Positions 1-64,000 of a stretch of DNA of 64,000 nt are shown in pieces (within the stretch, counting starts at the first letter, position 1; each line of letters begins with the position of its first letter). The stretch is taken from the IMG/VR virus record IMGVR_UViG_3300045988_019905. One strand, given 5' to 3'. The notes under the pieces were generated by a model, which was not told the origin of the DNA, did no database searches, and worked only from the letters and a program-made list of their open reading frames with translations. Both the position numbers and the translations under genes were made by a program. This stretch comes from a virus.

Positions 1-3000
1 ATAGCAACTTTATATAAAGTAGAAACTTTATTTCTAACTATATTAATATAATTAGTAGCTAATACAGTTTTAGTCTTTCCAAGTTTATCAGTAATATCTC
101 TAACAATTCTAATCTCTTTAGCAAGTTCTGTATCTTTCGCAGTACCAAGATTGAAATAATACATCTTTTGACTGTTAGGGAGATACGTAAGATTAGACTT
201 ACCTTTATTGAATCTTACTCTATAAGTAGGAATCTGTGGTATATTAGAATGACTACGAATATAATCTTCGTAGATATTGTTAGCAACAAGTTCTTTATCA
301 GATATAGCACTAACGCCAAATCTAATACTATCAATAATTCCAGTACCACCGTCTTCGCGAGAAGTATAAAGAGCACTATTTTTAATGACTTTACTAACAT
401 TGCCACGACGGAATTGATAACCCTCAACAACAAAAGCATATTTAATAATATCAATAGCAGTTAATCTAATAATAGGATTAGTATTATTAAAAGCTGCATC
501 AAACATCTTATATACACTTTCCATGTCTTGTTGTTGGTCGTCAAAACGAATCACTTGACTACTAATACCACGAGTTCTAAACTCATAACCGTTAAATAGA
601 TTAACATTAAGACTATTAAAAATAGTACGTTGACTTCCACTTAAATGACGTTGTACAAAATGTACTTTTTGAGCAGGAGTAAGTTTAGAGAAAGCATTAA
701 CTTCTTCTTGTGTAGGATTAGCAACATTAGCTATGTTAATATCATAGTTAATATCGTAACCAAATCCATAGATTCTTCTCTCTTCATCCTCTACGGGGGA
801 ACGTCCCTCTGATTCTACTTTACTTGCTGTTAATATATCTACTGCAATATTACCATTTCTTTCAAGTTCAATAGGCTGTGATATAATAGCAGAATTATTC
901 TTATACATATGTTCAAGAACATACTTCTTAAAATCATTATAAAGTTTCTCATTAACAGTTCCACCAAGATAATTCTGAATACTCTTAATAGCATTAGTGA
1001 AAGCATAAGATTCAGTTTCAAATAAACCTTGATTAATAAGAATACTTGGAACTGTACTATATCTTAAGAATCCATCAAGTATTGGATAAGCACTATCTTC
1101 ATTATTAGACGACAAGTAAATACTTGGCATGAAAGCTCCTTCTTCGGTAGCAGCAGTAATACCCGGATAAATAGCTTCAAGCAAAGGCTTATCTTTTACT
1201 TTAAGACGAGCAGCATCATCACTACTAAGTATTGCACTTATATCATCAATAACTTTACGTGTACTAAATATAGTTTGTTTAGCTCCAAATTTATCAGGAT
1301 TAAGTACTTTAACATGATTAGCTATAATACGACTATAATCATTAATATAATTAAAGTTAAGTATAGCAGCTAAATCTATTAGTAAAGTAGATTCATCGTA
1401 AAGACCAGCATTTTGTGCTGCAAATCGTTCTTCAATAGTTGGAACGTCTATTGTAAATACATCAGCATTATCTCTATTATCAAAGCTAATAGTACTATTA
1501 GGATACATCTTAGCAAACTCTTCTCCGTATTGTTGTTGAAGAGCTGTCATAACTTCCGTGATATTATTGTTATCAGTAACTACTTCATTACGTACTTTAA
1601 CTCCTAAATCATGAGCAACACGTTTAATTGCTGTATGAATAGGATTATAATTACCACGAACAAATACAGATTGAGATTCATAATAAGCCTCAACTATTCT
1701 ACTAACACCTGGCTGACGAAGCCAAGCCATAGCTGTATAAGCATCACAACCAATATCAAATAGAGTTTTAAATGCAGCAAACGTATATTCATTCTCATTC
1801 TTAATAGCTCCTTCTTTGATAGCATCAAGAATATGAGCGGTAGTATGAGAACTTGCAACTGTAATGTAGTCACCTACTACGTTCTTATTGTTTTTACTAT
1901 TTCCTATTCGGTTATGATAGACTATGCCATCTTTGACAGGAAATGCCTGAGCAGCAATATCAAGATTAACTCTATTACCATATCTTACTCTAATAGGAAC
2001 ACTAAGTTCAGCTTTAGCAACATTGAATACAGAGTTACCTGTATCGCGAGCAACACTAAATGCTTTCAATGTAGCACCTCCCATAGCATTTCTATGGAAT
2101 TGAATCTGGTCAAAAAGATTATAAACGTTTCTTTGTTTAGCACCAACAGCATCAAGTTTATCAAGAGCTTTATTTGCAGCAGTAATATCATCAAAGTTAC
2201 TACGAGCAAGATTCTCTTCGAGACTTGATTTATCATTCATGATAGCAATCATACTATCAACGATACGATTGTTTCGAGCGCGACGGTTATTTTGGTCTTC
2301 AATAGGAAGCTGTTTAAATTCCTCATAAGTAGGTAATCCAAAAGCAACAGCACGTTCATTAATAATATCTCCGAATTTATCTCTTGATAATTCTTTAATA
2401 TCATCTATTGTAAGACTATTAGCATTATCATTAATACGTCTGAACATATCTCTTTGTTCAGCAATAACGTCAGCTATTCTACTATACTTATCATAGAACT
2501 GTATAAATGCTGGATTATCTCCATATAGTCTACTATAAGTAGGCATAATAGAAAGGAGTCCACTAACTCTATCAGCAAACTTCAATTCTTTATTACGAAG
2601 AAAACCATCAACAATAGGTTTAAATTCATCAGGCAATTCATGATAAGTATCACCCTCATCAAGAAGTTCTTTTACTCTCTTTTCAAGATAATCTTCTAAA
2701 TCTTTATTACTCTTACGAATAACTTCAAAATATTTATCTTTAATAGATTGTTTAGTATCTCTATCTACTTGAAGCATATCTCGTGTTATACGTTCTTTAT
2801 CAGAATTTCTAAGAACATGAGATACATATCTTCCATAAGTAGCAGCTTCAGCAGTACTATCGCTAAATTCTACTTTATGAATACGACCATCTTTACCAAG
2901 ATAAGTCTCATAGGCAATACCATAAATAGAGTCAACGTCAAAGTCAGAACCAGTCTGTGTTACCCATTCATCTGGAACTACAATAGTACTTCCCATCCAT

Positions 3001-6000
3001 TCAGGTAGAAAACCTACAACTTTCATAACAGCCATAGACTGTTTACCCTCTGTTGGAATACGATAACCAATACATTTAAGAACTTCTTCATCAATATCTT
3101 CAATACGAATCTCTTTAACAAGATTACCATTTTCATCATATTGATTGAACATAGCTTTTGCCCATTTAGGAAGAAGTATTTCTACTTCTGAGCCATCTTT
3201 ATGATAGCCAAGTTCAACACGTTCACCAGTATCAGTTTCAATAGTTTCACCAGCTTTAAGTTGTTTACTCTTTTTAATAAGTCCATCAAGACCAACACTT
3301 GTTACTTGAGCAGCGTGCCATCCAGGAAGTTTTTGTCTTGTAATAAACTTATTAAATTGACTTTGAGCAATACTCTCAATTTTACTTGAGACAATATTCA
3401 TATAATTAGGCATGACCGGACCAGCATCACCATTCTTAACAGAAAGATAATCAATAGTATTACTATCAAGTCCAAGACGAGCAGCCTCTACCATCGCTAA
3501 TTTATAAATACGAGTATAATCAACTTTACCGTTATTGTCTCCTATAATACGATAGTTCCTATCAAACTTAATACCATACTTATCCATAAGAGCATTAAAG
3601 TCCTCACGGATATTAGCAACATAAGCTTTAATAAAATTATTCTTATGACTACTAACAGCAGCTTGGCTATTATCAAGTATCTTTTTCATTACTTGAATAC
3701 CAGCTTTATTCTGTGCATCAGTAATATGTTGAGGAACATCTTGTTGCTTATAAAGATACATATAACTGAATGGTTGTTTAACCTTTATAGCTTTCTCTTT
3801 AAATGCAGCAAGATTATCAGGAGTTACAACTCCTTCATTATCCCAATAAGTAAGTACATCATAATTAGCAGCTTTACTTGTTTCTTGAGTATTAACTTGG
3901 TCAATATCATTTTCTATCATGAAATTGGCAAGTTCTCCTAAACTTGTTCCCTCAAGGAATTTAGGTACAAGAACAAACTCTGCATTCTTAATTTGACGAG
4001 GAAGATGTCTACCAAAACGATTATTATAATAATGGTCATAGTAGAAGTTCTTCATTACCTGTATGAACGCTTGTAAATCATTAGGATTAATCTGATTAAC
4101 ATCAGTAGTAGCATCAGTAAGTTGCTTAATAAGTTTAGCATACTTAGGATATTCTCCTAATATCTTAAGACGACGAGCAGCTTCATATATAGTAATATAA
4201 GATTGAGCGTCATTAACAGTTGTAGTCGTAGCACTTGTTTCACCCTCATTCTCTTCAGGAACATAACCAAAACCTTCAGCAATTTCTCTTGCTTTATCTT
4301 TATTAGTTCCAGCTTCAATAAGTTTATTATAAAGCATATTACGGTTAGTACTTGGACGAATACTATTCTTAATAGTAACAGCATTCCAACCAGTTCTAAG
4401 AGTTACAGCTTTACCGTTAGGGAATTTAAGAGCTTCATCTCCAACAGAAAGATAAGTACCAGCTACTTCATTAACTGATTGAGTAAACGGACTATCGTTC
4501 TCTTGAACAACCTTATAATTAGCTATTGAATAACTTGTACCACCAGCTTGACTTTCCTTAGCACGTTTAAGGAATGTTTGAGGGTCTTTATAATACTTAC
4601 TATTTCCTTCAAATAAATCATCAAAATTAGCAAAATGAAGATAAGCATTAAGACCATATTCTGTAATCTCATAATCAGCAATACCCTCAAGGAAAGAACC
4701 AAACTTATTATGAGTCTCTCTAACAAAGTATTGTTGATAAGCATCAATCCATTTAGTAACAATATTATCAAGTTGGTCTTCAACATTTGCATCAAAAGTT
4801 ATAGATGCAGACGCATTTGCAGATTCAGAATATCCTGTTAATTGTATGCCCCCCGTAGAGGATGTGGAGGCAACAAGTTCATCCATAGCTTGCTCAACAT
4901 TATAACCAACAGTACTATCAAGTTTAGTAAACTTAAAAGCATTACCAGTAAGTTTACCTTTATCTCTAATACCCTTTTTAGGATTATAATGAAACCATTC
5001 AACAAGATGTTCTTTATCATTATGCTCAACATCATAAAGAGCTTTATAATAATCAAACAGTTCTCCTTTTAGAATATTAAGGAAACCATTATAAAGAGGA
5101 TGACTCTTATTAATATTACGAGCTTCGGGATGATTAGTTTTAAATTCTTCTTCTACTAATTGAGTAATAGCAGAACGATATTCACTAAGTTCATCACTGA
5201 AAATAGCTTGCCCTTGATAAGTAGGATTCTCTATATAATAACTACCTTTACCGTCATCACTAAGAATACCACTGAAATAATGATATTGATAGCCCTCATT
5301 AGGTTTACTGATAACATAAGCAATAGTTTGACGTTCTCCAACTTTAGGTTTAAGATTAAGAACTTTAGCAGGACTTGTTTTAATACGTTCAGGAGTATTC
5401 ATAACAAGATTAACTACTTCGTCAACAGAAGCATTCATTGCATTGAACTTAGTAAGTTGTTCATCTGCAATACTTAAATCAGCTACTTTAATAAGTTCAT
5501 TAATTCTAAACTTAGTATAAGCAGTCATAGCCGCTTTATCATAATTCCAAAGACCATCAGTAGAATACTTAGGCATACTTACTGCAAAGTTCTTAGGAGC
5601 ATCTGAAGGGATTCTCATTAAGAAAGGAGCAGTTTCAATTTGACGACCATTAGCAGTAGCAGTATTATATTTCTTATAAGTTTGAAGCTTTTTATGATAA
5701 GCATAAAGACCTACAAGATAATAGTCACCGTCAGACATCTTGGTATAGTCAGCATTAGTACCAGCTTGTTGATTACTTACTCCATTAAGCAGATAAGGAC
5801 TAATAAGTTTTTCTGCATAAGGACTAAGTTCATATTCTCCATTAGGTTTAATTCTAAATAAACCAACTATGCCTTGTTCCGGTCTATCAATAAGAATATT
5901 ACTATAAGCATATTCTGTAGATTTAAGTTTCTCTTTAACCCAAGCATTAAGAACATCTCTATCTCCACATATCTTAGCAATATTAGTAATGAAGTTATTA

Positions 6001-7808
6001 TAGATAATATCACTATTAAGATTGCCTTCAACATTACGAGAATTAAGTTCAGCTTTAGAATATACATAAGGTTCAATAGCTTGAGCTATATTACCAAGTA
6101 CTTCATCAGCTCCACGAAGATATTCTCCATCAAATTTAGGAAGTTCTTTCTCTACATATTTAGCATCTGTAACACCAGCCATTTGAGCTTGCTGATAATC
6201 AGCAAATCTTCTTCTGTTTTCTCTTTGTACTTCTCTATATTTAAAGTCTCTATCTTCCTTTTCAGCAAGACTTTGTTTTGCAGCACTATTAACTGTACGA
6301 AGATAACTAATAAGCTTATCAACATTATCATTACGATGAGTGGCTACTGTTTGATTATTACGTTCAATGTAATTATCAATAGCTAACTCGTTCATACTTG
6401 GAAAGTATGTCTTATATAGTTCTTTAAGTTGACGAACTACATCATCAAATTTAGTAGCATTAGCTTGAGCAACAGAAGATTGAAGATTACCACGACGAGC
6501 GCTCTTAACTCCCGATACTTTACCTGATGATTTAAATCTCTTAAATGCTTCATCAAGTTCATCAATTTGTCCCTCAATATCAATATTATCAGTCTGAATA
6601 GAACTACCTTTTAAATCATTACGAAGATTAAAATATAGTTTACGAACAGGATTATTAGAAGTATTACTTTGAATAGATTTAATAGAACCAAAACCATCAA
6701 TAGTAACTTCAAGTTTATCAATAGTAAATTTATTTAAATCAGTATATATCTTATTAGCTAAATCAGAATTAGCACGCATATCATTAGCCAATTTAATAAA
6801 TGCTGCAAATTCTTTCTTATTATTAGCAACAACTTCAATAGCATCAATAAAATCATTAATAGATTTAAAACCGCCAAGATTACTAATAATATTAGAAAGT
6901 TCAATAGTACATTCTTGATAAGTATGACAAGTAGGAACTCCAAGAGGATTACTACGGTCTACATCATAACGTCCATCATTATAACGTTGAGTACTATTAA
7001 AACGCTGCAAACTATCAAAGTATTGTCTAACTACTTCACTAATATGTTCAGTATAATTAGCAATATTAGAACCAAAATCCCATTGTTTAGTACTAAGGTC
7101 TACTTCATCTCCTTGTTCTACATCAGTGATAACATCTTCAGTATTATCACTCATAAGAGACAATTTGAAAGCCTCATCTTGAAAATCAGTATTACGTCCA
7201 AGAGCAGCAACTTTACTATTATAGAATACTTCATTCCAAAAGTCTGGGTCACCAAGAGCACTTTGAACTAAATCTTTAAAGTTACGTTCTTGGTCAGTTC
7301 CATTTTCTTCAATAGCATAATAGGCAGCTTCGATATTATTAATATCAAAACTGCCATATTGATTAGCTTTAACTATAAGTTGTTTTTTAAGAGCATTCTT
7401 TGCAGTAGCAATAAGACTTGTAACGTAATTCTCTTTACGTTTATCTGCATCAGAAGTTCTATAATTAACTGTACTAATAAGGTCTGCACAATATTGAGTA
7501 GCAGTATCAAACGCAGCTTGACTACGAAAAGCATACATACCACTATTAGCATTTACTTTAGAAGTATTATTAACATTAAAGAAGTTTCTATTACGATACT
7601 CTTTAATAAGACGACGGAGAACATTCTTGTTAATACTTTCAAGATTATCCGTCTTAGCAACTGCATCTTCTCTACAATATTGAAGGAATCCATCAGTTTT
7701 GAGAAGTGCTCCAAGTTTATAACAATCAGCAGGATTGTTATTTTCGAGTTCCTTAATTACATCATTAACTTTAGGAACATTATGAAATTCAATAGAACAT
7801 CCGTCCAT
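1..7808 (-). CDS. Virion-packaged two-barrel DNA-dependent RNA polymerase of crAss-like phages (phi14:2 gp66 family), truncated at its 3' end by the window edge
   Basis: Seen: the gene is absent from the ORF track only because it has no stop inside the window. The ATG is at 7808, with an in-frame stop upstream at 7848-7850. I hand-translated the frame and checked it at 7741-7808, 4833-4871, 2931-2945 and 3-26; it is open for 2602 codons down to position 3. The protein contains ...GYRIPTEGKQSMAVMKV...VPDEWVTQTGSDFDVDSIYG..., with the DxDxD triad DFDVD encoded at 2931-2945. Established: a DxDxD metal-binding loop resembling beta-prime NADFDGD is the catalytic signature of two-barrel RNAPs, including the giant virion RNAP of crAss-like phages. 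Inference: position at the end of the giant virion-protein block fits that family. Confidence 0.8.
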   Translation of the reverse strand, partial: MDGCSIEFHNVPKVNDVIKELENNNPADCYKLGALLKTDGFLQYCREDAVAKTDNLESINKNVLRRLIKEYRNRNFFNVNNTSKVNANSGMYAFRSQAAFDTATQYCADLISTVNYRTSDADKRKENYVTSLIATAKNALKKQLIVKANQYGSFDINNIEAAYYAIEENGTDQERNFKDLVQSALGDPDFWNEVFYNSKVAALGRNTDFQDEAFKLSLMSDNTEDVITDVEQGDEVDLSTKQWDFGSNIANYTEHISEVVRQYFDSLQRFNSTQRYNDGRYDVDRSNPLGVPTCHTYQECTIELSNIISNLGGFKSINDFIDAIEVVANNKKEFAAFIKLANDMRANSDLANKIYTDLNKFTIDKLEVTIDGFGSIKSIQSNTSNNPVRKLYFNLRNDLKGSSIQTDNIDIEGQIDELDEAFKRFKSSGKVSGVKSARRGNLQSSVAQANATKFDDVVRQLKELYKTYFPSMNELAIDNYIERNNQTVATHRNDNVDKLISYLRTVNSAAKQSLAEKEDRDFKYREVQRENRRRFADYQQAQMAGVTDAKYVEKELPKFDGEYLRGADEVLGNIAQAIEPYVYSKAELNSRNVEGNLNSDIIYNNFITNIAKICGDRDVLNAWVKEKLKSTEYAYSNILIDRPEQGIVGLFRIKPNGEYELSPYAEKLISPYLLNGVSNQQAGTNADYTKMSDGDYYLVGLYAYHKKLQTYKKYNTATANGRQIETAPFLMRIPSDAPKNFAVSMPKYSTDGLWNYDKAAMTAYTKFRINELIKVADLSIADEQLTKFNAMNASVDEVVNLVMNTPERIKTSPAKVLNLKPKVGERQTIAYVISKPNEGYQYHYFSGILSDDGKGSYYIENPTYQGQAIFSDELSEYRSAITQLVEEEFKTNHPEARNINKSHPLYNGFLNILKGELFDYYKALYDVEHNDKEHLVEWFHYNPKKGIRDKGKLTGNAFKFTKLDSTVGYNVEQAMDELVASTSSTGGIQLTGYSESANASASITFDANVEDQLDNIVTKWIDAYQQYFVRETHNKFGSFLEGIADYEITEYGLNAYLHFANFDDLFEGNSKYYKDPQTFLKRAKESQAGGTSYSIANYKVVQENDSPFTQSVNEVAGTYLSVGDEALKFPNGKAVTLRTGWNAVTIKNSIRPSTNRNMLYNKLIEAGTNKDKAREIAEGFGYVPEENEGETSATTTTVNDAQSYITIYEAARRLKILGEYPKYAKLIKQLTDATTDVNQINPNDLQAFIQVMKNFYYDHYYNNRFGRHLPRQIKNAEFVLVPKFLEGTSLGELANFMIENDIDQVNTQETSKAANYDVLTYWDNEGVVTPDNLAAFKEKAIKVKQPFSYMYLYKQQDVPQHITDAQNKAGIQVMKKILDNSQAAVSSHKNNFIKAYVANIREDFNALMDKYGIKFDRNYRIIGDNNGKVDYTRIYKLAMVEAARLGLDSNTIDYLSVKNGDAGPVMPNYMNIVSSKIESIAQSQFNKFITRQKLPGWHAAQVTSVGLDGLIKKSKQLKAGETIETDTGERVELGYHKDGSEVEILLPKWAKAMFNQYDENGNLVKEIRIEDIDEEVLKCIGYRIPTEGKQSMAVMKVVGFLPEWMGSTIVVPDEWVTQTGSDFDVDSIYGIAYETYLGKDGRIHKVEFSDSTAEAATYGRYVSHVLRNSDKERITRDMLQVDRDTKQSIKDKYFEVIRKSNKDLEDYLEKRVKELLDEGDTYHELPDEFKPIVDGFLRNKELKFADRVSGLLSIMPTYSRLYGDNPAFIQFYDKYSRIADVIAEQRDMFRRINDNANSLTIDDIKELSRDKFGDIINERAVAFGLPTYEEFKQLPIEDQNNRRARNNRIVDSMIAIMNDKSSLEENLARSNFDDITAANKALDKLDAVGAKQRNVYNLFDQIQFHRNAMGGATLKAFSVARDTGNSVFNVAKAELSVPIRVRYGNRVNLDIAAQAFPVKDGIVYHNRIGNSKNNKNVVGDYITVASSHTTAHILDAIKEGAIKNENEYTFAAFKTLFDIGCDAYTAMAWLRQPGVSRIVEAYYESQSVFVRGNYNPIHTAIKRVAHDLGVKVRNEVVTDNNNITEVMTALQQQYGEEFAKMYPNSTISFDNRDNADVFTIDVPTIEERFAAQNAGLYDESTLLIDLAAILNFNYINDYSRIIANHVKVLNPDKFGAKQTIFSTRKVIDDISAILSSDDAARLKVKDKPLLEAIYPGITAATEEGAFMPSIYLSSNNEDSAYPILDGFLRYSTVPSILINQGLFETESYAFTNAIKSIQNYLGGTVNEKLYNDFKKYVLEHMYKNNSAIISQPIELERNGNIAVDILTASKVESEGRSPVEDEERRIYGFGYDINYDINIANVANPTQEEVNAFSKLTPAQKVHFVQRHLSGSQRTIFNSLNVNLFNGYEFRTRGISSQVIRFDDQQQDMESVYKMFDAAFNNTNPIIRLTAIDIIKYAFVVEGYQFRRGNVSKVIKNSALYTSREDGGTGIIDSIRFGVSAISDKELVANNIYEDYIRSHSNIPQIPTYRVRFNKGKSNLTYLPNSQKMYYFNLGTAKDTELAKEIRIVRDITDKLGKTKTVLATNYINIVRNKVSTLYKVA
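780..799 (-). repeat. Copy of the GC-rich dispersed motif (CCCCCGTAGRGGATGTGRAG family)
   Basis: Seen: the minus strand reads CCCCCGTAGAGGATGAAGAG. The copy lies inside the RNAP CDS in sense orientation and is translated ...GRSPVEDEE... Confidence 0.8.
4849..4870 (+). repeat. Copy of the GC-rich dispersed motif
   Basis: Seen: the plus strand reads CCCCCCGTAGAGGATGTGGAGG. The copy lies inside the RNAP CDS, antisense to the gene, and is translated ...ASTSSTGGIQ... Confidence 0.8.
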
Positions 7809-7831
7809 AGGTTTATCTTTATAAGAACGTC

Positions 7832-7863
7832 CGGCAGACGAGCGATTTTAAGGCTCTCTGCCG
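7832..7863 (-). promoter_or_regulatory. Intergenic stem-loop between the 1969-aa gene and the RNAP gene
   Basis: Seen: the minus-sense sequence is CGGCAGA-GAGC-cttaaaatc-GCTC-g-TCTGCCG, giving 7+4 bp of stem with one bulge. It lies 24 nt upstream of the RNAP ATG. The 3' tail (GACGTTCTTAT) is only weakly U-rich, so the role (attenuator, processing site or stabiliser) is inferred. Confidence 0.45.
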
Positions 7864-10800: not shown

Positions 10801-13800
10801 ATAAATATATCGAATACTTCTAAGTTCTTGAGGAAGTATCTCATCAATTATGTCGGTCGGATAACCTTGACTAATAAGGTCATCTTTGATAGCAGAATAT
10901 TGTGCATCATAATCAAGTGTAACAAGATTTTCATCAGTGTTACTAAGAAACTTATCAAGAAGATAAGCATTAATTTCAGAAGAAGCATTAAATTGTCTTT
11001 CTTGAGCAGCTTCTTGTTGAGCAAGTATAGAATGTAGTTCAGCATCAGCAGTATCTTCAGTTACAGGAGCAACAATTTCTGGGGGAGTTTCTTCTCTACC
11101 CCCCGTAGGTGTGGAAGTATCAGGCTTAACTTCTTCGGGCTGTTCAGGTTCAGTAGGAGCTTCTTCTGTATTCTGAGCAACAACTGGAGGAGTTTGTACT
11201 GGTTGATTATTAACAGTAGCAGCAGGTTGTTGTCCTTTCTGTCTTGCTTTAAGTCTTGCGTGACGACTAATAACATCTACAATAGGTTCAGATGATTCAT
11301 CAAACAGATTAAGGTCACGGTTTATTCTATCAAGTTCGTCCTTAACATTATCACTAAGATTTACACCTGTATTGCCAGATAAATAATCAAGAACATCATC
11401 AATATCATTAGAGTCAAAAGCATTATCAAGTCTTTGAAGAGTATCTTTGAAAGCTTCATCTTCTGTAACTTTAAATATATTCTCAATATACTTAGCTCTA
11501 TCTCTAATTTCTTTATTTGTTTCAGCAATATCACTACTAACCAAAGTTTTTCTTCGGTCTGCCATACTACGTCCAATTACAGCAGTAGCAATATTTTTAT
11601 CTATATCATTAAGTTCTCTATAAGCATTAATATCACGAGCTTCATTATACATAGCATTAAATGCTGTTTCATCAGCAGCATTAACAGACTTAAGAAACGC
11701 TTGTTTCTTCTTATTTATACGACGAGCAATATGTCCATGTTCGAGTTTATTAATTTTCTTATCTCTAAGATTCTTATCATTAAGAGTAAGTTGTTGATTA
11801 AGATAATTAAGTTCTTGATTAATACCCTCAAGATTAATAACTCTATTAAGTTCTCCAACACGAAGTTTAGCGTTCTCATCTGTTATATCATTAAGTGCTC
11901 GATTATAATCAGAAGTATAACCGTCTATTATACGTTGTTCAGCTTTAGTAGCTAATTTATTATATGTATTCTCCTTAGCAATTCTACCAGCAATATTAGC
12001 GTCTTTAGCGTCATTATTAATAGCTTTATTAAGTTCAGTTTCATACATCTCTGAAACTTCAGCCATCTTAGCAACCGTATTTGCCATAAATTGTTTAGAT
12101 TCTCCTTGTTCAATAGCATCACTCTTATCCATATATTGAGCAGTATCTTCTGACATTAGAAAATCTTTAAGCAAATCATAGTTACCTTTGTCAATAGCAT
12201 TAATTGTTAAATCTGTTATTAACTTTTCAGTTTCAGTTTGTTTAAGAGCTTCACGTTCAGTATCACTTATTTCTTCATAAGCGTTAGTACCATCAGCATT
12301 TTGAATAACATTCCCACTATCGTCAAGTATAGGACTATTAGGATTAAGATTATTATTCAAGATAGCCATATTATTTACATATCTATCAAGAAGAGCAGCA
12401 CGACTATCAATTTCAGCTTTACGACTTTCTGTTAGAACATCTTTGTTCTTAGTAACATATTTAGCCCATTGTCTTGTAGCAGCACTACCTATTCCTTGAA
12501 AAGCAACTCCACCAAGCCATCCCCAAAATGCTTGTTCCCACATTTGTGGGTCTTGAAGATAATCAGTATAAACACGAGATTGATAAGCATCATTAAGCAT
12601 AGCACGACCTTTATCAACTCCGGCTTGTTGTTGTACATATTGCCAACCCTCTTCAAATCCTTCACTACCCTCACGAACAACATTAAGAAGAGTTTCTTTA
12701 TCAGGAACTTGTAGAAACTTTTTAATACCAGTAGGCGATTGAATTTCTCTACCAACTAATCGAGCGGCAGCTTGTTCATTTGCTTTTCTCAAAGTTTTAT
12801 TGGTAGCCATATTCTTAGCACCTTTCCAAATATTCTTTAGTCCTTTGAGCTGCCAAGCATCTAATAACATAAGCCACATATCATTCGTGAAAGTATCATC
12901 AGCAGATTCACCAGATACATATTTAGCAATTTCGTCATCACTAAGTCCACGAAGTTTAGGATTATTCTCATATAGAGTTTCTCTGTCTTTATCAGACATA
13001 GTAGCTAATCGTTCCTTAGCTTCATCATAAACTTGTGTATAAGTATCACGAGCTTCTATATAGTTTTCAGCAACTCTACTTGCAGCAGCAGTACCTAAAA
13101 TCTCACTTCCAGTTTCTGCCATCTTACCCCAAGTATTAGGTCTACCAAATGGTGTACCAGCAACTTTACCGATACCACGAGCAAGACGTCCCATACCTAA
13201 TACTTTACCAAGTTTAGAAACAGCAGTACCGGGAATAAGAAGACTCAAAGTAGAAGCTATACTAACAGCATTACCAAGCCACCAACCTGTATCTCCAAAA
13301 TCAAAATTTTCATCAGGATTAGTACGATAGATTTCAAATCTTTCACGAATAGCATCTTGCCATTCAGCAAGTTGAGAACTAACAGGATTTGTATAATCGT
13401 CATCAGAAACTCCTATAAGTTGCCCAGCAGCATCAACCAAATCACTAAATCCACGAAGAGTACCAAGAACAACTTCAGAACCAACAGCTTGCCCAACAAA
13501 TCTACCGGTTTGCTCAAGTACTCCTTGATTTTCTGCACGTTCTTTATTTAATTCTTCTTCAGTATTATAAGGATTAACATAAACATTATAAGGAGTATAT
13601 TTATCTACATCATATTGATTAAGATTATAAATACCTTTAGCAAGTGTACGTCCTAAAACAGAACGACCCTCGTCACTAATAGAAGTGCCGGGGTTATAAT
13701 CTGTAATAGTAGGGGGCTGAAGTGCCCCCTTTTTAGTCTTAGGATTATAGTCAGGATTATCTCTAACGTTTCCTTCTTGTGCAAACTTTAGTATATCCAT
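7891..13800 (-). CDS. Giant virion (cargo or ejection-type) protein, 1969 aa, with an HExxH zincin-like motif
   Basis: Seen: ATG at 13800 and stop at 7891. The 1969-aa ORF abuts the upstream gene directly. The motif ...RVLAHEQLHKRIY... (HEQLH) is encoded at 8629-8643. There are long coiled-coil-like stretches and a hydrophobic segment (WWLGNAVSIASTLSLLIPG). Inference: the size and the position next to the RNAP resemble the packaged giant proteins of crAss-like phages. Peptidase activity is unproven. Confidence 0.7.
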   Translation of the reverse strand: MDILKFAQEGNVRDNPDYNPKTKKGALQPPTITDYNPGTSISDEGRSVLGRTLAKGIYNLNQYDVDKYTPYNVYVNPYNTEEELNKERAENQGVLEQTGRFVGQAVGSEVVLGTLRGFSDLVDAAGQLIGVSDDDYTNPVSSQLAEWQDAIRERFEIYRTNPDENFDFGDTGWWLGNAVSIASTLSLLIPGTAVSKLGKVLGMGRLARGIGKVAGTPFGRPNTWGKMAETGSEILGTAAASRVAENYIEARDTYTQVYDEAKERLATMSDKDRETLYENNPKLRGLSDDEIAKYVSGESADDTFTNDMWLMLLDAWQLKGLKNIWKGAKNMATNKTLRKANEQAAARLVGREIQSPTGIKKFLQVPDKETLLNVVREGSEGFEEGWQYVQQQAGVDKGRAMLNDAYQSRVYTDYLQDPQMWEQAFWGWLGGVAFQGIGSAATRQWAKYVTKNKDVLTESRKAEIDSRAALLDRYVNNMAILNNNLNPNSPILDDSGNVIQNADGTNAYEEISDTEREALKQTETEKLITDLTINAIDKGNYDLLKDFLMSEDTAQYMDKSDAIEQGESKQFMANTVAKMAEVSEMYETELNKAINNDAKDANIAGRIAKENTYNKLATKAEQRIIDGYTSDYNRALNDITDENAKLRVGELNRVINLEGINQELNYLNQQLTLNDKNLRDKKINKLEHGHIARRINKKKQAFLKSVNAADETAFNAMYNEARDINAYRELNDIDKNIATAVIGRSMADRRKTLVSSDIAETNKEIRDRAKYIENIFKVTEDEAFKDTLQRLDNAFDSNDIDDVLDYLSGNTGVNLSDNVKDELDRINRDLNLFDESSEPIVDVISRHARLKARQKGQQPAATVNNQPVQTPPVVAQNTEEAPTEPEQPEEVKPDTSTPTGGREETPPEIVAPVTEDTADAELHSILAQQEAAQERQFNASSEINAYLLDKFLSNTDENLVTLDYDAQYSAIKDDLISQGYPTDIIDEILPQELRSIRYIYNSVQEMNNGEHASSIDFVIAKLMTADEANRAEYFRNLIDIYKADNNILSIGGKDYFNIISLMRFAINESNATFETVNKLYNDLSAYLVSGVDENLINISPRDVALSREKLMELVQDQERENPELDNNIGVRTDNDFGKQALASLAVGQPLIPVVKSQGVEFWTTVNSPAGPIDAKIGFNSRAKRTADNDGYIFDNGYLTYEIRYNEDGYSSTLDDLFDQLNPQNGVLSEEAKEFIDALYKNKAGRLTQEDIDKFWNNSLTKELLNQVKNKNTNNDNAVRLLRSIGSVYLYNVSDNLDANYQSYVDWIAKQYNNYKMVDNIIDNQDNIKITVKYISRGEAIFGDDVTPAAIDKAIVGFNYDDIHLGAIAADGEIHDITNGTVRIKAGFKNRNMVVIVPNGTNEPFYAKVIPQAVNYNNGLGAAIRDEVLNSIRERQQGNITFEELKDRLMSIFGVKNFIDGVNCIEYNNRIIITTAGSDIPMITIYKFKNDSTDLGTGITLNPTQVSGAGVGRTGWGGTLETELADVVNKLLDSSVYSMSHGIARGTDSNRYVKHEDNGSLTVTFGDKSYNYGNYLDYIIKNGTGKIRLGKTNIGGYESNFRPNPKDDSAKQKVRIEYEVLRPVEDAETARQAAINALEQRGDQDNVPTNDIIKATAPEFLTAADKAILDEILPANVSIDTFNDNTDYAVYHTADGSITLFKPFFNLARGSQYKAVRVLAHEQLHKRIYDNGIMQSQIFIDEISAIRDAFINALNNPDAYPDFTKHIQDNLYDRDNYIAQLRKVVDPASFPNKDYTYMLEEFIVESLTNNVLNEALNNISSTKKVTADVKRPNLWQKIIELIRQLFGFNKIKDNTLLAQELRAFGKKFKDIKSVEEKLIQDDVNNKVEEPTPPITTVINEQESTAAELSQQADDTMGLDVDISDMFSSIDITGDNLSVPNMASIRTGLTAAERTEFDRSLAAGETKIYCL
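8920..8938 (-). repeat. Copy of the GC-rich dispersed motif
   Basis: Seen: the minus strand reads CCCCGTAGAGGATGCAGAG. Sense orientation in the 1969-aa CDS, translated ...VLRPVEDAETA... Confidence 0.8.
11099..11117 (+). repeat. Copy of the GC-rich dispersed motif
   Basis: Seen: the plus strand reads CCCCCCGTAGGTGTGGAAG. Antisense orientation in the 1969-aa CDS, translated ...DTSTPTGGREE... It is preceded by GGGGGAG at 11081-11087, which can pair with the C-run. Confidence 0.75.
13712..13734 (+). terminator. GC hairpin plus T5 on the antisense strand, inside the 5' end of the 1969-aa gene
   Basis: Seen: GGGGGC-tgaagt-GCCCCC followed by TTTTT on the plus strand. It lies within codons for ...KKGALQPPT... 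of the minus-strand gene. Inference: it has the form of an intrinsic terminator for rightward (antisense) transcription. Confidence 0.35.
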
Positions 13801-50939: not shown

Positions 50940-50947
50940 CAAATATA
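50940..50947 (-). promoter_or_regulatory. Bacteroidota-type -7 promoter box TATATTTG upstream of the scaffold-like and capsid genes
   Basis: Seen: the minus strand reads TATATTTG, 31 nt upstream of the ATG at 50909 and at the end of a 355-nt gap. Established: the -7 consensus is TAnnTTTG. There is no convincing -33 TTTG. Confidence 0.35.
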
Positions 50948-59891: not shown

Positions 59892-60488
59892 TTAATTCAA
59901 AAGTGGAGATTCTTCTCTTTCGGCAGTAGCAGGTTCTTTAGGAACTTTGAAAGGACATTCAGGAGTAACATCCTTTTTATAACCACCTATAATATCATTG
60001 ACAGGAATCATACGGAAATCAATGAAGTAACAATCCGGAGCAAGTTCTCTCGCTGCCATATCAGATGTACTACCATCATTAAAGTAGCTTCCAGTAACAA
60101 TAGCTCTTACAAGAGCATCATCAGAATTACAATAACGACCAACAGCAGTCGGGTCAAGAATGTTTTGTGGGATTGTAATAAGGTTAGCTCTTTCAAGAGA
60201 ACTTGTAGGAATAATCAGTTTATCCATAAGTTCACAACCGTTAGCGTTAGTTTCTCCTTCATGAAGTTTAGCAAGAACAGGAACACATTTAACCATAGTA
60301 GTCTTGTTATTCTTAACATTACTTACTACGCTATAAAGACGTTCTTTATAGATAAGAGCTACAACAGCATAATACTGTGGAACTACAACACCAGCAAGAA
60401 GAGCGTCTATGTCTTCTTTGGTAATTTCTTCAATGTCTGTTGGCACGAGGATGTCATAGGACATCTTGTCAGATTCAATTCTAATCAT
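59892..60488 (-). CDS. Hypothetical protein (198 aa)
   Basis: Seen: ATG at 60488. It is the first substantial gene of the leftward module. No motif recognised. Confidence 0.6.
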   Translation of the reverse strand: MIRIESDKMSYDILVPTDIEEITKEDIDALLAGVVVPQYYAVVALIYKERLYSVVSNVKNNKTTMVKCVPVLAKLHEGETNANGCELMDKLIIPTSSLERANLITIPQNILDPTAVGRYCNSDDALVRAIVTGSYFNDGSTSDMAARELAPDCYFIDFRMIPVNDIIGGYKKDVTPECPFKVPKEPATAEREESPLLN

Positions 60489-60495
60489 CTTTTAG

Positions 60496-60639
60496 TTATT
60501 TATTTGGTTTAACAATAGCTTCAAGTCCAAGAGTTCCAATCTTGAGTTTACTTGGCTTAACTTCTCTTTTCTTATCTCCACGACAACCAGCTTTATAAAC
60601 GGCAGGTTCAGGAGTAGGTTTGTCAGTATCATTTCTCAT
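60496..60639 (-). CDS. Possible small ORF (47 aa)
   Basis: Seen: ATG at 60639, encoding MRNDTDKPTPEPAVYKAGCRGDKKREVKPSKLKIGTLGLEAIVKPNK, with stop at 60496, 8 nt before the next ATG. It is below the track cut-off. It contains the left arm of the 17-bp inverted repeat, so it may be non-coding. Confidence 0.3.
   Translation of the reverse strand: MRNDTDKPTPEPAVYKAGCRGDKKREVKPSKLKIGTLGLEAIVKPNK
60573..60589 (-). repeat. Left arm of a 17-bp perfect inverted repeat (TGGTTGTCGTGGAGATA on the minus strand)
   Basis: Seen: the plus strand reads TATCTCCACGACAACCA, the exact reverse complement of 60893-60909. Confidence 0.85.
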
Positions 60640-60737
60640 AACAAAATCATTTTGAGCAACAGTATTAAAACTTTTTTATATATCCAAATGTTATGTGGTA
60701 ATTAACATTAATTTAACATATCCCCTATATAATAAGG

Positions 60738-60806
60738 TACATATACGCACACGCGAATAATAGGTAATATACGTGCGTATATAATAATGTACGTGCAGGT
60801 ATTAAT
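60738..60806. repeat. Three spaced ATATACGYRC-type repeats
   Basis: Seen: ACATATACGCAC, AATATACGTGCG (the centre of the near-palindrome TATACGTGCGTATA) and AATGTACGTGCA occur at intervals of about 20-26 bp, immediately left of the A/T-only tract. Confidence 0.6.
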
Positions 60807-60811
60807 AGAGG

Positions 60812-60880
60812 TATTATATTAAATATTAATATAAATAATAATATTAATAATTATATTATTTATAATATAATTATAATATA
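60812..60880. other. 69-nt tract with no G or C (candidate DNA-unwinding element)
   Basis: Seen: positions 60812-60880 contain only A and T. The tract lies at the switch between the leftward and rightward coding blocks and is flanked by repeats. Confidence 0.6.
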
Positions 60881-60892
60881 GATATATAGGCA

Positions 60893-61346
60893 TGGTTGTC
60901 GTGGAGATATACATGGGGATATAAGAGCAGGTTGTGGTGGTGATATACCTACACATCCTCTACGGGGGAAAAGCCCAACTGAATGGGCAAATATTGCAGC
61001 ATTTGGTATTGAGAATTATAAACCCACTTGTCGTGGTGATTATAGACCAGATTGTCCTATTGATGATAATGTGGATTATACTGGCAATATAAGACCGGTT
61101 GTGGCTGGACATGGTGAATATGGAGCTGATGCTAATCTTCATGGAAATAGTGCTGACGCTGGAAGTAGAGATTGACTTGATAATCTACTTAGGAGACATT
61201 GTGGAGATTATTAACGTGAAAATCAGCTTAGGAGTAGATGCTGATTTTGATGGGGATTTGAATATGAGGATTTCAAAGAATGTTGGTTTAGAAGTTTATG
61301 GAACTTTTTTTATCTGATTGATGAACATAGAGATTTTGGAGATATA
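60893..61346 (+). repeat. Array of degenerate direct repeats (iteron-like, core GGTTGTSGTGGWGATWATA / GTGGAGATATA)
   Basis: Seen: copies occur at 60893-60911 (right arm of the 17-bp inverted repeat), 60915-60923, 60930-60947, 61027-61044, 61050-61068, 61071-80, 61097-61121, 61197-61213 and 61336-61346. All are in the same orientation. Related sequences are GGTTATCGGAGATTA at 63702-63716 and GGTTGTGTC at 63728-63736. Confidence 0.6.
60948..60968 (-). repeat. Copy of the GC-rich dispersed motif (non-coding, inside the iteron-like array)
   Basis: Seen: the minus strand reads CCCCCGTAGAGGATGTGTAGG. Confidence 0.8.
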
Positions 61347-61493
61347 GGTGCGAATGGGCATATAGGTATATATGGTATTTAGAATCTATATATGTGTGGG
61401 GGAGCCTACTATAAAGAACCCCCCGGTCTTCTTTCTCGAATCGAATCCCCCCCCGTCATGCTTTTCCAAAAACGAATCGTTGAGCAAATGTCA

Positions 61494-61517
61494 AAACTCA
61501 TTCACAAACAAAACAAA
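61494..61517 (+). promoter_or_regulatory. Candidate early promoter motif, copy A
   Basis: Seen: aaACTCATTCACaaACAAAACAAA, with the ACTCATTCAC core starting 116 nt upstream of the ATG at 61612. Confidence 0.5.
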
Positions 61518-61611
61518 TTCTGGCTTGTCACATTGACGAAGCTGGTCATGTTGTACTACGCAGACATGGTCATTATTAATTAAGTCGTAGCAGTTATAGG
61601 AGGACTGTATT

Positions 61612-62121
61612 ATGAAAACAACAATTAAGTCAATCAGAATGGAGAAGTTTGAAGGACAGTTTACTGGCAAAGTTATCGTCACTATCGCTGATGATATTCT
61701 TGGCTTTGTTCGTAATGTTGATGCTGATGGTGTTATTACCTTTGAGCAACAGAACGTGAAGCAGATGAGGATGCAGCTGACTGCATTGTCTGCACAAGTT
61801 CGTCAAGCTGTTGGTGACAAGTTTACTACTGCCTTTGGTTATCGTCTTGATTCTGCCAAAGCTGGTGGTGTTGAAGAACTTGTCAATGTTCTCAATGTCA
61901 TACTGACTGATGCTACTATTGAAGTTGAGGCTGCTGTTCAGAAAGCTGATGAAGCTGATGCTGACAGTCATGATGCCATATTCTACAAGATTAGCGAGGT
62001 CAAGTTGGACGAGATGATGTCATATTTAGTGGCTCAACACTTCGTTGAGAACTTCATGAAAGTGACTGACATGACAAGACAACAAGTGTTCATCACAAAG
62101 TTATTTGGTGTCAAATTGTAG
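61612..62121 (+). CDS. Hypothetical early protein (169 aa)
   Basis: Seen: ATG at 61612, preceded by AGGAGG (61598-61603) at an 8-nt spacing. The coding composition is clean. No motif recognised. Confidence 0.7.
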   Translation: MKTTIKSIRMEKFEGQFTGKVIVTIADDILGFVRNVDADGVITFEQQNVKQMRMQLTALSAQVRQAVGDKFTTAFGYRLDSAKAGGVEELVNVLNVILTDATIEVEAAVQKADEADADSHDAIFYKISEVKLDEMMSYLVAQHFVENFMKVTDMTRQQVFITKLFGVKL

Positions 62122-62169
62122 TATTAATTGGGAGTGGTGGTGACACTGCTCCCACAAATCATTATCATT

Positions 62170-62397
62170 ATGAAATTACACTTATTGAAATTAGTGTTGA
62201 AGATGTTATTCTTCTTGGTGATGTTTATCTTGTTTGTCTTTGTCTGCTTGGTTATGGCACAACGAGAGAACTATGAAGCGTCATTCTTGTCCATGTTGTT
62301 GTTCGTATTGTCGGCTATGATGTTCAGTCATTACAAAGAACAATGGATTAATATTAGACTTGTTGAAGACGAACAAGAAGATGCTGTTACTGAATAG
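62170..62397 (+). CDS. Small membrane protein (75 aa, two hydrophobic segments)
   Basis: Seen: the track ORF begins at a TTG (62128). The first ATG at 62170 gives MKLHLLKLVLKMLFFLVMFILFVFVCLVMAQ...SFLSMLLFVLSAMMF...EDEQEDAVTE. Confidence 0.5.
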   Translation: MKLHLLKLVLKMLFFLVMFILFVFVCLVMAQRENYEASFLSMLLFVLSAMMFSHYKEQWINIRLVEDEQEDAVTE

Positions 62398-62438
62398 CAT
62401 TGTAGTGGAGACTGGGAAACTGGTCTTCACTTCAAACG

Positions 62439-62468
62439 TTATCCAAACTCATTCACGTACAAAATAAA
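62439..62468 (+). promoter_or_regulatory. Candidate early promoter motif, copy B (no ORF follows)
   Basis: Seen: TTATCCaaACTCATTCACgtACAAAATAAA, followed by GTTCTGATAA twice (62479 and 62491). The next ATG-initiated gene belongs to copy C. Confidence 0.45.
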
Positions 62469-62579
62469 ACCCGAAGTAGTTCTGATAATCGTTCTGATAA
62501 GACTACTGATAAACCTGCTAATGCCAATCCATATGCCAATGTGATACATTGTGACAGGTTCGACTCATTATGCTAATCC

Positions 62580-62611
62580 TTATCCTAACACTCATTCACT
62601 TACAAAATAAG
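62580..62611 (+). promoter_or_regulatory. Candidate early promoter motif, copy C
   Basis: Seen: TTATCCtaacACTCATTCACttACAAAATAAg, followed by TCTCGG and GTTCTGATAAGACTA. The ACTCATTCAC core starts 98 nt upstream of the ATG at 62688. Confidence 0.5.
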
Positions 62612-62687
62612 TCTCGGAGTGGTTCTGATAAGACTATTCTTAATCATGATAATACTAATATTAATAATAAAACTAAAGTTGAAAGTT

Positions 62688-63269
62688 ATGGAAAAGAAAC
62701 TATTTGCTATTGAATGTGAGAATGTTGCTCTTGTTGTACGTCCTAACGGTGACACTGTTATAGTGACAGAAGCTACTGAACTTGTTCTTAACAATGCTGT
62801 TATGGAGCAACTTGTCAGAAATAGTGGTGCTTATAAGTCATTTGTTGCTACTAAAGATGAGGTTGTTGCTAATCTTGAACGTGATAATGTTAAGCTTCAG
62901 AATGAGATTGTAGGTCTCAAAGAAGAGCTTGAACATACTAAAGCTGATAAAGATAAGCTGCAAAAAGAGCTTGATGATATAGCTGATAGTGCAATACAAC
63001 CTCTTGCTAAAGGATATGCTGTTAACATAGGTAATCTTTCTCAAGGAACTTTAGGTTATATTTTCGATATTGATGGTAATTTTATTGCAGATTGTGGGAC
63101 AAATAAACGTGCTAAAAGAGTACAATATCTGTTACAAGAGGGCAAAGTAAGTCTGGATGTAGTCATTGAGATATTTGGTAATACTGGTAAGAAGAGTAGA
63201 ATTGCCAGTAAAGCAGAACTTGATGACTTTAATTGGGATGATGTTCCTGTTGATGGTGGTGAAAAGTGA
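62688..63269 (+). CDS. Hypothetical early protein (193 aa) with a central coiled-coil segment
   Basis: Seen: the track ORF starts at a GTG (62619) inside the promoter-like motif. The first ATG at 62688 gives MEKKLFAIECENVALVV... A heptad-like region follows (…VKLQNEIVGLKEELEHTKADKDKLQKELDD…). The ORF ends with a double stop, TGATGA. Confidence 0.7.
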   Translation: MEKKLFAIECENVALVVRPNGDTVIVTEATELVLNNAVMEQLVRNSGAYKSFVATKDEVVANLERDNVKLQNEIVGLKEELEHTKADKDKLQKELDDIADSAIQPLAKGYAVNIGNLSQGTLGYIFDIDGNFIADCGTNKRAKRVQYLLQEGKVSLDVVIEIFGNTGKKSRIASKAELDDFNWDDVPVDGGEK

Positions 63270-63546
63270 TGAGGATGTGGATGGTTATGGAGATGGTGAT
63301 AGGGGAGATTCGCCGAGTAGTTATGCTCGTCTCCCTCTTCCTCTCCAACTTCATTCTCCTTATTATTTTATTCTTACTGCTTCTTATTCTCCAAATACTG
63401 ATTCTAATGCCTAATCTTATCATGTTCATAATGCTTTTTATAATGCTTATGATAATCATCTTGGTGATAATGCTCTTCATCATGCCCATGATAATGCTGA
63501 TAAGCATGGACTTCATCATGCCCAAGCTGTGACTGCATTATCTCCA

Positions 63547-63633
63547 TTATAACCAAAAGTTATAACTCCAACGGTTCATTATAACCAAAAGTTATTATAA
63601 CTATAAGTTATAGCCCATAACCAAAAGTTATAA
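63547..63633. promoter_or_regulatory. Cluster of four TTATAAC-N5-GTTATAA palindromes (operator-like sites)
   Basis: Seen: TTATAACcaaaaGTTATAA at 63547-63565, TTATAACcaaaaGTTAT at 63579-63595, TTATAACtataaGTTATA at 63595-63612 and ATAACcaaaaGTTATAA at 63617-63633. Additional TTATAAC or GATAAC half-sites lie at about 63644, 63670 and 63902-63921. Confidence 0.6.
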
Positions 63634-63852
63634 TGGCTTCTATGATAACATCTATATAATCATTAATACTTATAACTGTATGCCAAATCCTAATAGAAAC
63701 AGGTTATCGGAGATTACTCTGATAGCTGGTTGTGTCTGTATGATAATCTTCATAATAACCTTGTGTTGGATTATGTTCTTTAAGTGATATAATGTCAGAT
63801 TATTATATCATTTGCTGGATATTATAGTGAGAGATAATCTAAATCTTTCACT

Positions 63853-63883
63853 TTATCCACAACTCATTCACTAACAAAATAAA
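63853..63883 (+). promoter_or_regulatory. Candidate early promoter motif, copy D
   Basis: Seen: TTATCCacaACTCATTCACtaACAAAATAAA, followed by TCTCGG. The ACTCATTCAC core starts 109 nt upstream of the ATG at 63971. Confidence 0.5.
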
Positions 63884-63970
63884 TCTCGGCGAGTTAATGG
63901 TGATAACTATATAAATGTTATTGCTGTTGGCGGACCAATTCTATTACTAACTAAATAAATTAATATTGCT

Positions 63971-64000
63971 ATGGCAGAATTGAAAGATGGTAAAGCAGCC
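63971..64000 (+). CDS. Start of a plus-strand gene running off the window (MAELKDGKAA...)
   Basis: Seen: the ATG at 63971 follows promoter-like copy D at the same spacing as the other early genes. Only 10 codons are visible. Confidence 0.4.
   Translation, partial: MAELKDGKAA

Follow-up and report, generated by a model that had tools for sequence, protein, structure and literature searches.

The stretch of DNA analysed here (the window) is a 64,000-nt sequence from IMG/VR virus record IMGVR_UViG_3300045988_019905, and the subject of the analysis is a short motif that recurs at the head of its rightward genes and is a candidate early promoter. The major capsid protein, portal and large terminase encoded in the window match crAss PHROG families, and the capsid protein is 79% identical to that of cr3_1 (Diorhovirus) and 75% identical to that of p-crAssphage (Carjivirus), both members of the subfamily Crudevirinae of the Intestiviridae. 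Judged by these proteins, the source phage is a crAss-like phage of the Intestiviridae. No DNA-level match to any deposited phage was found for positions 61000-64000, and the phage is very common, with its 169-aa protein occurring in identical form in 1234 blocks of a public collection. The catalytic signature of the crAss-type virion RNA polymerase (RNAP), DFDVD, is encoded in a minus-strand open frame at the start of the window, and by analogy with phi14:2 and crAss001 this enzyme would be packaged into the particle. GC skew switches sign at about 60-61 kb, at the end of the 60-kb leftward block, and ahead of the first motif copy come a gap rich in A+T (60640-60900) and about 600 nt that code for no protein. 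The gap, which marks the strand switch, is extremely AT-rich, and many metagenomic and IMG/VR contigs terminate within about 1 kb of it; such ends might be due to poor read coverage, to hypervariability among strains or to real ends of the genome. Physical genome ends were sought from the contig ends, and the breaks gather in the switch region, but their positions are inconsistent.

The motif, first described as ACTCATTCAC-NN-ACAAAAYAA, has four exact copies, all on the plus strand, starting at 61496, 62447, 62590 and 63862 as the original prediction had stated. The pattern ACTCATTCACNNACAAAAYAA has four exact matches in the window against 0.07 expected, and none of 100 shuffles reached four. 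No fifth match with up to three mismatches was found on either strand across the 64 kb, including the 60-kb leftward block, from which the motif had already been reported absent. The 10-mer alone has one extra one-mismatch match, at 50129, which equals chance expectation. Correction is needed for the motif length, previously given as 24 nt: the pattern as written covers 21 nt, and conservation continues for a further 7 nt (RWYCYGR), so that the full element is (A)CTCATTCAC-NN-ACAAAAYAA-RWYCYGR, of 28 nt, with a core beginning at CTCATTCAC and a variable position 1. The NN spacer aside, the 21-nt core (through ACAAAAYAA) is C/A-rich and has C but no G on the top strand, and therefore cannot self-pair or be palindromic; neither dyad symmetry, which a dyad-symmetric operator would show, nor an internal repeat was found in the motif. 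Two flanking strings had also been pointed out. TCTCGG is indeed seen 3' of copies 3 and 4, and TTATCC 2-4 nt 5' of copies 2-4, but TTATCC was rejected as part of the element because a sister lineage that retains the motif lacks it.

All copies are intergenic and sense-oriented and fall within the opening 2.4 kb of the rightward block, at copy-to-copy spacings of 951, 143 and 1272 nt with genes between (Table 1). Three of them lie at the predicted distance of 98-116 nt from an ATG (116, 98 and 109 nt as measured). The broader claim that the motif precedes each rightward gene has to be given up: copy 2 is followed by no open reading frame (ORF) ahead of copy 3, the ORF at 62170-62397 has no copy, and none lies downstream, where about 17 kb beyond copy 4 (helicase, DNA polymerase and further genes) contain no sense-strand copy at up to five mismatches over 22 specified positions.

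Table 1. Features of the window at and around the repeated motif, with the polymerase gene.
Feature	Positions	Strand	Remarks
crAss-type virion RNAP gene	1-7850	-	open frame of at least 2616 aa, continues past window start; catalytic DFDVD at about 2931-2945
Landmark GAATCGAATC8GTCATG	61438-61460	+	37 nt 5' of copy 1; single occurrence in window
Motif copy 1	61496-61523	+	ACTCATTCACAAACAAAACAAATTCTGG; ATG 61612 lies 116 nt on
First rightward gene, unit 1 cargo	61612-62121	+	169 aa, no family match; no homolog in p-crAssphage, cr3_1 or cr8_1
Hairpin, 11 bp, G+C-rich	62129-62154	+	adjoins stop codon of 169-aa gene; -18.9 kcal/mol, z = -3.9; no U-tract
Small hydrophobic ORF	62170-62397	+	75 aa from ATG; no motif copy of its own
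Hairpin, 12 bp	62404-62431	+	-18.8 kcal/mol, z = -3.8; ends 16 nt 5' of copy 2
Motif copy 2	62447-62474	+	ACTCATTCACGTACAAAATAAAACCCGA; no ORF before copy 3, 143 nt on
Motif copy 3	62590-62617	+	ACTCATTCACTTACAAAATAAGTCTCGG; ATG 62688 lies 98 nt on
Unit 3 gene	62688-63269	+	193 aa, coiled-coil-like, no curated family
Hairpin 3' of unit 3 gene	63302-63336	+	-22.8 kcal/mol, z = -2.2
Strong hairpin about 125 nt 5' of copy 4	63693-63739	+	-19.1 kcal/mol, z = -4.5; sole terminator-like match of consensus scan
Motif copy 4	63862-63889	+	ACTCATTCACTAACAAAATAAATCTCGG; ATG 63971 lies 109 nt on
Unit 4 gene start	63971-64000	+	206 aa in full genome (L010 12363-12983), continues past window; homologs in cr3_1 and cr8_1

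Variation among strains, drawn in part from gut-metagenome DNA contigs matched by a leader sequence, leaves the motif almost untouched. Exactly four copies, always in this order, are present in ten loci extending 10 kb both ways and in five near-complete genomes from IMG/VR. The motif is exact in 247 of 261 instances from about 100 strain loci, recurrent changes fall only at position 1 (A/C) and in the NN spacer, and copy 1 is invariant in 73 instances from other strains. The sister lineage (exonuclease 86-87% identical) also retains all four copies, while its upstream sequence is unalignable. Between the window and this lineage, identity over all four copies is 26-64% in the 30 nt upstream, 96-100% in the 27-nt motif and 78-94% in the next 30 nt; the motif is 100% identical at copies 1, 3 and 4, against 64%, 26% and 52%, respectively, in the sequence upstream. 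On this comparison the motif is the exact 5' edge of conserved units. At copies 1, 3 and 4 the conservation runs on through the leader of about 100 nt into the gene, whereas at copy 2 about 45 nt downstream, with GTTCTGATAA repeats, are conserved and the lineages diverge beyond. The distance from copy 2 to copy 3 is 143, 155 or 202 nt among relatives, with no conserved ORF between, and copy 2 could be read either as a tandem promoter or as the start of a short non-coding RNA. The GTTCTGATAA(G) units themselves (62475-62520 and 62618-62640) number two 3' of copy 2 and one 3' of copy 3; they are kept in the sister lineage, and an extra 12-nt unit occurs in some strains (L010).

The early regions are also mosaic, with recombination breakpoints at or between motif copies. 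One genome (L152/L033, IMGVR_UViG_3300029523_000005) combines a window-type exonuclease (99% identical) and unit 4 with sister-type flanks at units 1-3, and another locus, L001, is mosaic at copy 4, where a sister-type upstream flank meets a window-type leader.

Since conservation extends from the motif through leader and gene, and hairpins close the stretch, the repeating unit can be described as motif, leader of about 100 nt, small gene (or none) and hairpin. The 12-bp hairpin between the small hydrophobic ORF and copy 2 looks like the end of unit 1, and its stem is preserved in the sister lineage by paired changes (GUGGAGAC...GUCUUCAC vs UUGGAGAU...GUCUCCAA). The small ORF itself may not be a real gene: it is left uncalled by the gene caller in L010-L019, and the sister lineage differs in sequence there. 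The hairpin adjoining the 169-aa gene has no U-tract and so does not qualify as a canonical intrinsic terminator. In the predicted RNA folds of all four copies a hairpin opens about 25-29 nt from the first base of the motif, and the motif is unpaired in three of the four, the minimum-energy fold of copy 3 pairing part of it. A search of 60400-64000 against Rfam 15 returned only two chance-level matches, unrelated to the motif, and no tRNA. The cargo genes have no Pfam or PHROG family and only one of the three has homologs in other genera, a pattern typical of host-takeover genes; they are small, fast-evolving and, as far as such a pattern can tell, probably serve host takeover or anti-defence.

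Counterparts were looked for by searching the early regions of relatives for repeated 20-mers and comparing their scores with a shuffle background. The repeats with the highest scores number three per genome and match the window motif in location and in sense orientation. In p-crAssphage the repeat is CTCATTATCAACATTAAATA, at 121, 366 and 1296, which, like the window motif, begins with CTCATT and is ACA-A/T-rich in its centre; the SSB gene lies 88 nt 3' of the copy at 366 and gp04 112 nt 3' of that at 1296, while no ORF lies between the copies at 121 and 366. Among 48 IMG/VR p-crAssphage loci, each contig has two or three copies and the first spacing is 245 nt in nearly all. A motif related to that of the window is found in cr3_1 (CCCTC-N3-ATAATAACAAKAAAGAATYYGR, three copies), and the uncultured L035/L038 group has CCTCAAAA-N-AACAWATAARATTTYGA, also in three copies. 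Outside these, cr8_1 (Obtuvirinae) has TCATCAAGAAAANAACAAGACYYGR, with one copy 87 nt 5' of the first early ATG plus a tandem pair, and the uncultured L034 group has GTKCCACATTWCRTTCA, again one copy plus a tandem pair. The cultured crAss002 (Churivirinae; host B. xylanisolvens) has three perfect copies of ACCAAATGACTTTAAACATATTG, one plus a tandem pair, 97-208 nt 5' of the first two early ATGs; in NC_055828 they fall on the minus strand at about 92489, 92091 and 92055. The motifs of cr8_1, L034 and L035 are weaker, scoring only slightly over the shuffle background. A generalised pattern, CTC-N-ACA-N-YYYGR, fits the window phage, p-crAssphage, cr3_1 and L035/L038; as a single pattern for all Intestiviridae it was rejected, failing for cr8_1, cr11_1, R. 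jaberico, L034 and L041. The original prediction had proposed a scan of the remaining genome and of relatives: strains and the sister lineage keep four copies, several relatives have counterparts, and the further 17 kb or so scanned downstream add none.

The motif does not resemble the promoter of the host type, as had been noted before. Bacteroides sigma-A promoters were scored by a -7 element, TAnnTTTG, with a -33 TTTG about 20 nt upstream. The motif shares with them its place 5' of genes, its sense orientation and a comparable distance to the ATG (about 75-115 nt), but as a sigma-A promoter it was rejected, with neither element at any copy: no TAnnTTTG lies in or near one, the motif contains no TTTG, and plus-strand TAnnTTTG in 60500-64000 is found only at 60615 and 61737. 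Promoters of the E. coli sigma-70 type were also discarded, being at chance level (18 found vs 18.6 expected). A canonical Bacteroides promoter, TTTG-N20-TATGTTTG, stands just past the window end (L010:13205, within L010 13165-13212), in the gap after the unit 4 gene and 75 nt 5' of the next ATG. The gene behind it, first in the replication operon, encodes a 193-aa protein orthologous to gp06 of p-crAssphage, and in that phage a promoter of like form, TTTG...TATATTTG (2593-2627, cited at 2620), stands 72 nt 5' of gp06. Host-type -7 boxes are also present 5' of some leftward genes, e.g. at 50947, 51109 and 26461. As far as these sequences tell, the phage is using the host consensus where the host polymerase is wanted and something different at its first four units.

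A single-copy landmark precedes the first motif copy (Table 1). The same combination of C-run and GTCA (AATACCCCCGTCAWG; AATAC5GTCAWG type) is found once or twice per genome, 6-45 nt 5' of the first early motif copy, in p-crAssphage (BK010471, 85-92), crAss002 (L150, about 12495-12510), cr8_1 (L044, 4221 and 4250), L034 and the sister lineage (L025, two copies). In cr11_1 it stands at the head of the early region, though no repeated motif follows. The landmark is conserved across three Intestiviridae subfamilies, far more widely than the repeated motif, and in p-crAssphage and cr11_1 it lies within an inverted repeat, TTGAC...GTCAA. Its candidate roles are those of an entry site for the polymerase, a signal for the genome end or for packaging, and part of an origin.

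Other repeated signals share the region. Between unit 3 and copy 4, four palindromes TATAACCAAAAGTTATA (TATAAC-N5-GTTATA) cluster at 63548-63632, adjoining the start of a small His-rich minus-strand ORF (63404-63556), and the window as a whole has 10 matches at up to three mismatches against 1.3 expected. Like clusters are present in the early regions of p-crAssphage (TATAACCTCTAGTTATATC, three copies, about 2077-2190) and R. jaberico (CTATAACTAAAAGTTATAAT, at least three copies); by sequence the cluster looks like an operator set for a conserved regulator. The sole perfect TTATCCACA (DnaA-box consensus) in 64 kb, at 63853-63861, adjoins copy 4. As a DnaA box it was rejected, since TTATCCACA-like sites are at chance (26 found vs 25.5 expected) and the site is absent in the sister lineage. 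A 12-mer, CCTCTACGGGGG, is scattered on both strands (e.g. 788, 4850, 24487 and 60957), with 16 matches at up to two mismatches vs 0.41 expected; similar CCCCGTAGAGG or CCCCGTAAAGG elements recur in cr3_1, cr8_1, crAss002, L025 and L034, and may be small hairpin or terminator-like elements.

We give about even credence to the reading that the motif is a lineage-specific set of immediate-early promoters, probably read by the injected virion RNAP. Its asymmetry and sense orientation, its spacing of about 90-115 nt from the ATGs of several genera, the sharp 5' boundary of conservation and the restriction to the first 2.4 kb all fit a promoter, as do its invariance within a lineage, its divergence between lineages and the canonical host promoter that follows directly after. 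Divergence of this kind fits phage polymerase-promoter pairs and is not expected of sites for a shared host sigma factor. Moreover, before phage proteins are made the DNA can be read only by host factors or by proteins delivered with the virion; as the motif is unlike the host consensus and diverges among phages whose hosts share that consensus, the injected RNAP, with or without a co-injected factor, would be the most economical reader. The units would be expressed early, given their position and the layout of crAss001, in which a small early gene cluster at one genome end is switched on within 10 min (PMC8375218). In phi14:2, rifampicin-resistant early transcription has been attributed to the crAss-type RNAP gp66 (bioRxiv 10.1101/2020.03.07.982082), and both systems agree with the injected RNAP as the reader. 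The position, orientation, conservation and non-host sequence of the motif, its counterparts and the RNAP gene are observed, and support the original proposal of such a promoter in part; the reader, the transcription start and the timing are what we infer from the sequence.

If the motif is such a promoter, the virion-packaged RNAP would enter the cell together with the DNA and, alone or with a co-injected factor, would recognise the asymmetric 28-nt element on double-stranded DNA. The start of transcription would fall on the terminal YGR of the element or directly 3' of it, giving an RNA that opens with a hairpin in a leader of about 100 nt and continues into one small fast-evolving gene or, at copy 2, is a short non-coding RNA only. 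The strong hairpin would then end transcription or stabilise the RNA. Host RNA polymerase would act next, at the canonical Bacteroides promoter after unit 4 that heads the replication operon. A wider proposal, that the motif family (CTCATTCAC-NN-ACAAAAYAA-RWYCYGR, CTCATTATCAACATTAAATA and ACCAAATGACTTTAAACATATTG) is the promoter code of the Intestiviridae virion RNAP, with C5GTCA perhaps as an entry site at the first-entering end, is held more tentatively, at somewhat below even credence.

Several observations weigh against a promoter for the virion RNAP. Early 5' ends have been mapped in one crAss-like phage only, phi14:2, and that study found no motif in common upstream of them (bioRxiv 10.1101/2020.03.07.982082), which implies that the virion RNAP may not need a simple sequence promoter. 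In our search the early regions of the Steigviridae phi14:2 and crAss001 had no repeated 20-mer above the shuffle background, and three Intestiviridae lineages (cr11_1, R. jaberico and L041) had no multi-copy motif. The repeated motif seems to belong to Intestiviridae and not to Steigviridae, and the RNA sequencing results for crAss001 and phi14:2, which lack it, are for that reason not transferable to it. Within the window, the hairpins that close the units have no U-tracts, and the leader from motif to ATG folds no better than shuffles (z -1.1 to +0.1). Finally, the polymerase might in truth enter at the C5GTCA landmark, and the role of the repeated motif would then be a different one.

Among other roles, the motif might be an operator for a phage-encoded or virion-delivered regulator that co-switches the immediate-early units, for example in an early-to-middle shut-off, with the promoter elsewhere in each intergenic region. 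This alternative had been raised together with the promoter, and a long, invariant element present once per unit and specific to its lineage, as in regulator-operator pairs, is what it would lead one to expect. The original prediction left it open; we now consider it unlikely, because the motif has no dyad symmetry or internal repeat, its 21-nt core cannot be palindromic, and it is strictly strand-specific. Besides, the divergent upstream sequence holds no other shared promoter-like element, and a separate true palindrome in the region, TATAAC-N5-GTTATA, already looks like an operator. Slightly less likely again is a site acting in RNA, by which the transcript would begin upstream, e.g. near C5GTCA, and the motif would set mRNA 5' ends as a processing, stability or protein-binding site. 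The predicted folds, with the motif unpaired and a hairpin just 3' of it in three of four copies, would suit such a site, as would the continuation of conservation from motif through leader, the position of the motif right after strong hairpins, the highly conserved single-copy landmark 5' of copy 1 and the abundant early non-coding RNAs of phi14:2 (bioRxiv 10.1101/2020.03.07.982082). Yet no canonical promoter lies 5' of copy 1, a read-through transcript must cross four strong hairpins, no Rfam family matches, and the folds are no better than those of shuffles.

Host RNAP could also read the motif by a non-canonical route, through an alternative host sigma factor or an injected sigma-like or appropriator protein. 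The promoter-like position and orientation would be the same, and in p-crAssphage and the L035 group the motif ends in TAnTTTG or ATTTTGAG on its 3' side, which falls just short of the Bacteroides -7 box. At the matching bases, the RWYCYGR end of the copies in the window phage reads CTCGG, CCCGA or TCTGG, with no TTTG and no TA; the motif diverges strongly among phages whose hosts, all Bacteroidales, share one sigma-A consensus, and a perfect host-type promoter stands a few hundred bases downstream. We place this route slightly behind an RNA-level site in probability. Very improbable, in our view, is a motif with no role in expression, whether as replication iteron, packaging repeat or mere recombination junction between early-gene cassettes. 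It does lie at mosaic-block borders, one contig joining sister-type units 1-3 to window-type unit 4; a RepL-like gene is nearby in p-crAssphage, and the perfect DnaA-box-like TTATCCACA adjoins copy 4. However, spacings of 951, 143 and 1272 nt with genes between do not make a tight iteron array in helical register, family searches detected no initiator gene in the window phage, DnaA-like boxes are at chance, and TTATCC is missing from the sister lineage. A separation from the ATG that is fixed at about 90-115 nt in several genera would be unexpected for replication or packaging sites, and where promoters are shared, recombination is a recognised side effect rather than a function.

Known promoter systems resemble the putative early promoter in part. 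Coliphage N4 has a T7-like single-subunit virion RNA polymerase (vRNAP) and three hairpin promoters near the first-entering genome end, which are DNA hairpins with a 5-7 bp stem and a 3-nt loop extruded from supercoiled DNA. The window motif is similar in having 3-4 copies clustered in the first few kb of the early region and in that it would be read by an injected giant RNAP. An N4-type hairpin promoter was nevertheless rejected, as the core without G cannot self-pair and the motif is unpaired in three of four folds. Promoters of the T7 group are 23 nt long (-17 to +6), and the T7 enzyme, synthesised in the infected cell, transcribes middle and late genes from many copies per genome. Like them, the window motif is long, asymmetric and almost invariant, has lineage variants with a common core, includes the presumed initiation bases, and has a transcript predicted to open with a hairpin; it differs from them in polymerase family, and post-infection synthesis and many copies are features of the T7 group. 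Further promoters of virion-packaged RNAPs, there of the two-barrel type, are the early promoters of phiKZ and AR9. For the gp96 vRNAP of Thermus phage P23-45, a conserved AT-rich motif has been tied to mapped starts and to polymerase occupancy by chromatin immunoprecipitation sequencing (bioRxiv 10.1101/2022.12.01.518664). There too a conserved, phage-specific, non-host sequence lies 5' of the first-expressed genes in polymerase-encoding relatives, and the polymerase is delivered with the DNA. However, starts are mapped in that system, and the window motif, defined by sequence comparison, has only 3-4 copies; the two sequences are unrelated, and the crAss-type enzyme is a separate, single-chain polymerase lineage, the P23-45 vRNAP being two-barrel. 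Finally, phi14:2 and crAss001 share with the window phage a related crAss-type virion RNAP, a small early block at one end of a gene block and long non-coding early stretches, but no common motif has been reported or found there.

In the literature searched, whose coverage left out most subscription journals, no early promoter has been reported for any crAss-like phage, and the motif strings of p-crAssphage and crAss002 appear in no paper. The element is proposed here, from its sequence and setting, as a phage-specific early promoter for a class of polymerase without a defined promoter. The motif family supplies templates for in vitro transcription, for promoter-complex structures and for 5'-end mapping, would better the annotation of thousands of gut crAss-like genomes, and might yield phage-specific expression parts for Bacteroides. 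Within the genome, the motif divides the immediate-early cassette region from the replication operon driven by the host polymerase. The question addressed is how the giant virion RNAP of crAss-like phages locates early genes; the purified enzyme of phi14:2 was active on single-stranded and on denatured double-stranded DNA (bioRxiv 10.1101/2020.03.07.982082). If the promoter-code reading is true, the motif family would give a Crassvirales RNAP its first sequence-specific promoter; it would take in the motif of p-crAssphage, the most abundant human gut virus, and could be tested both there and in the cultured crAss002.

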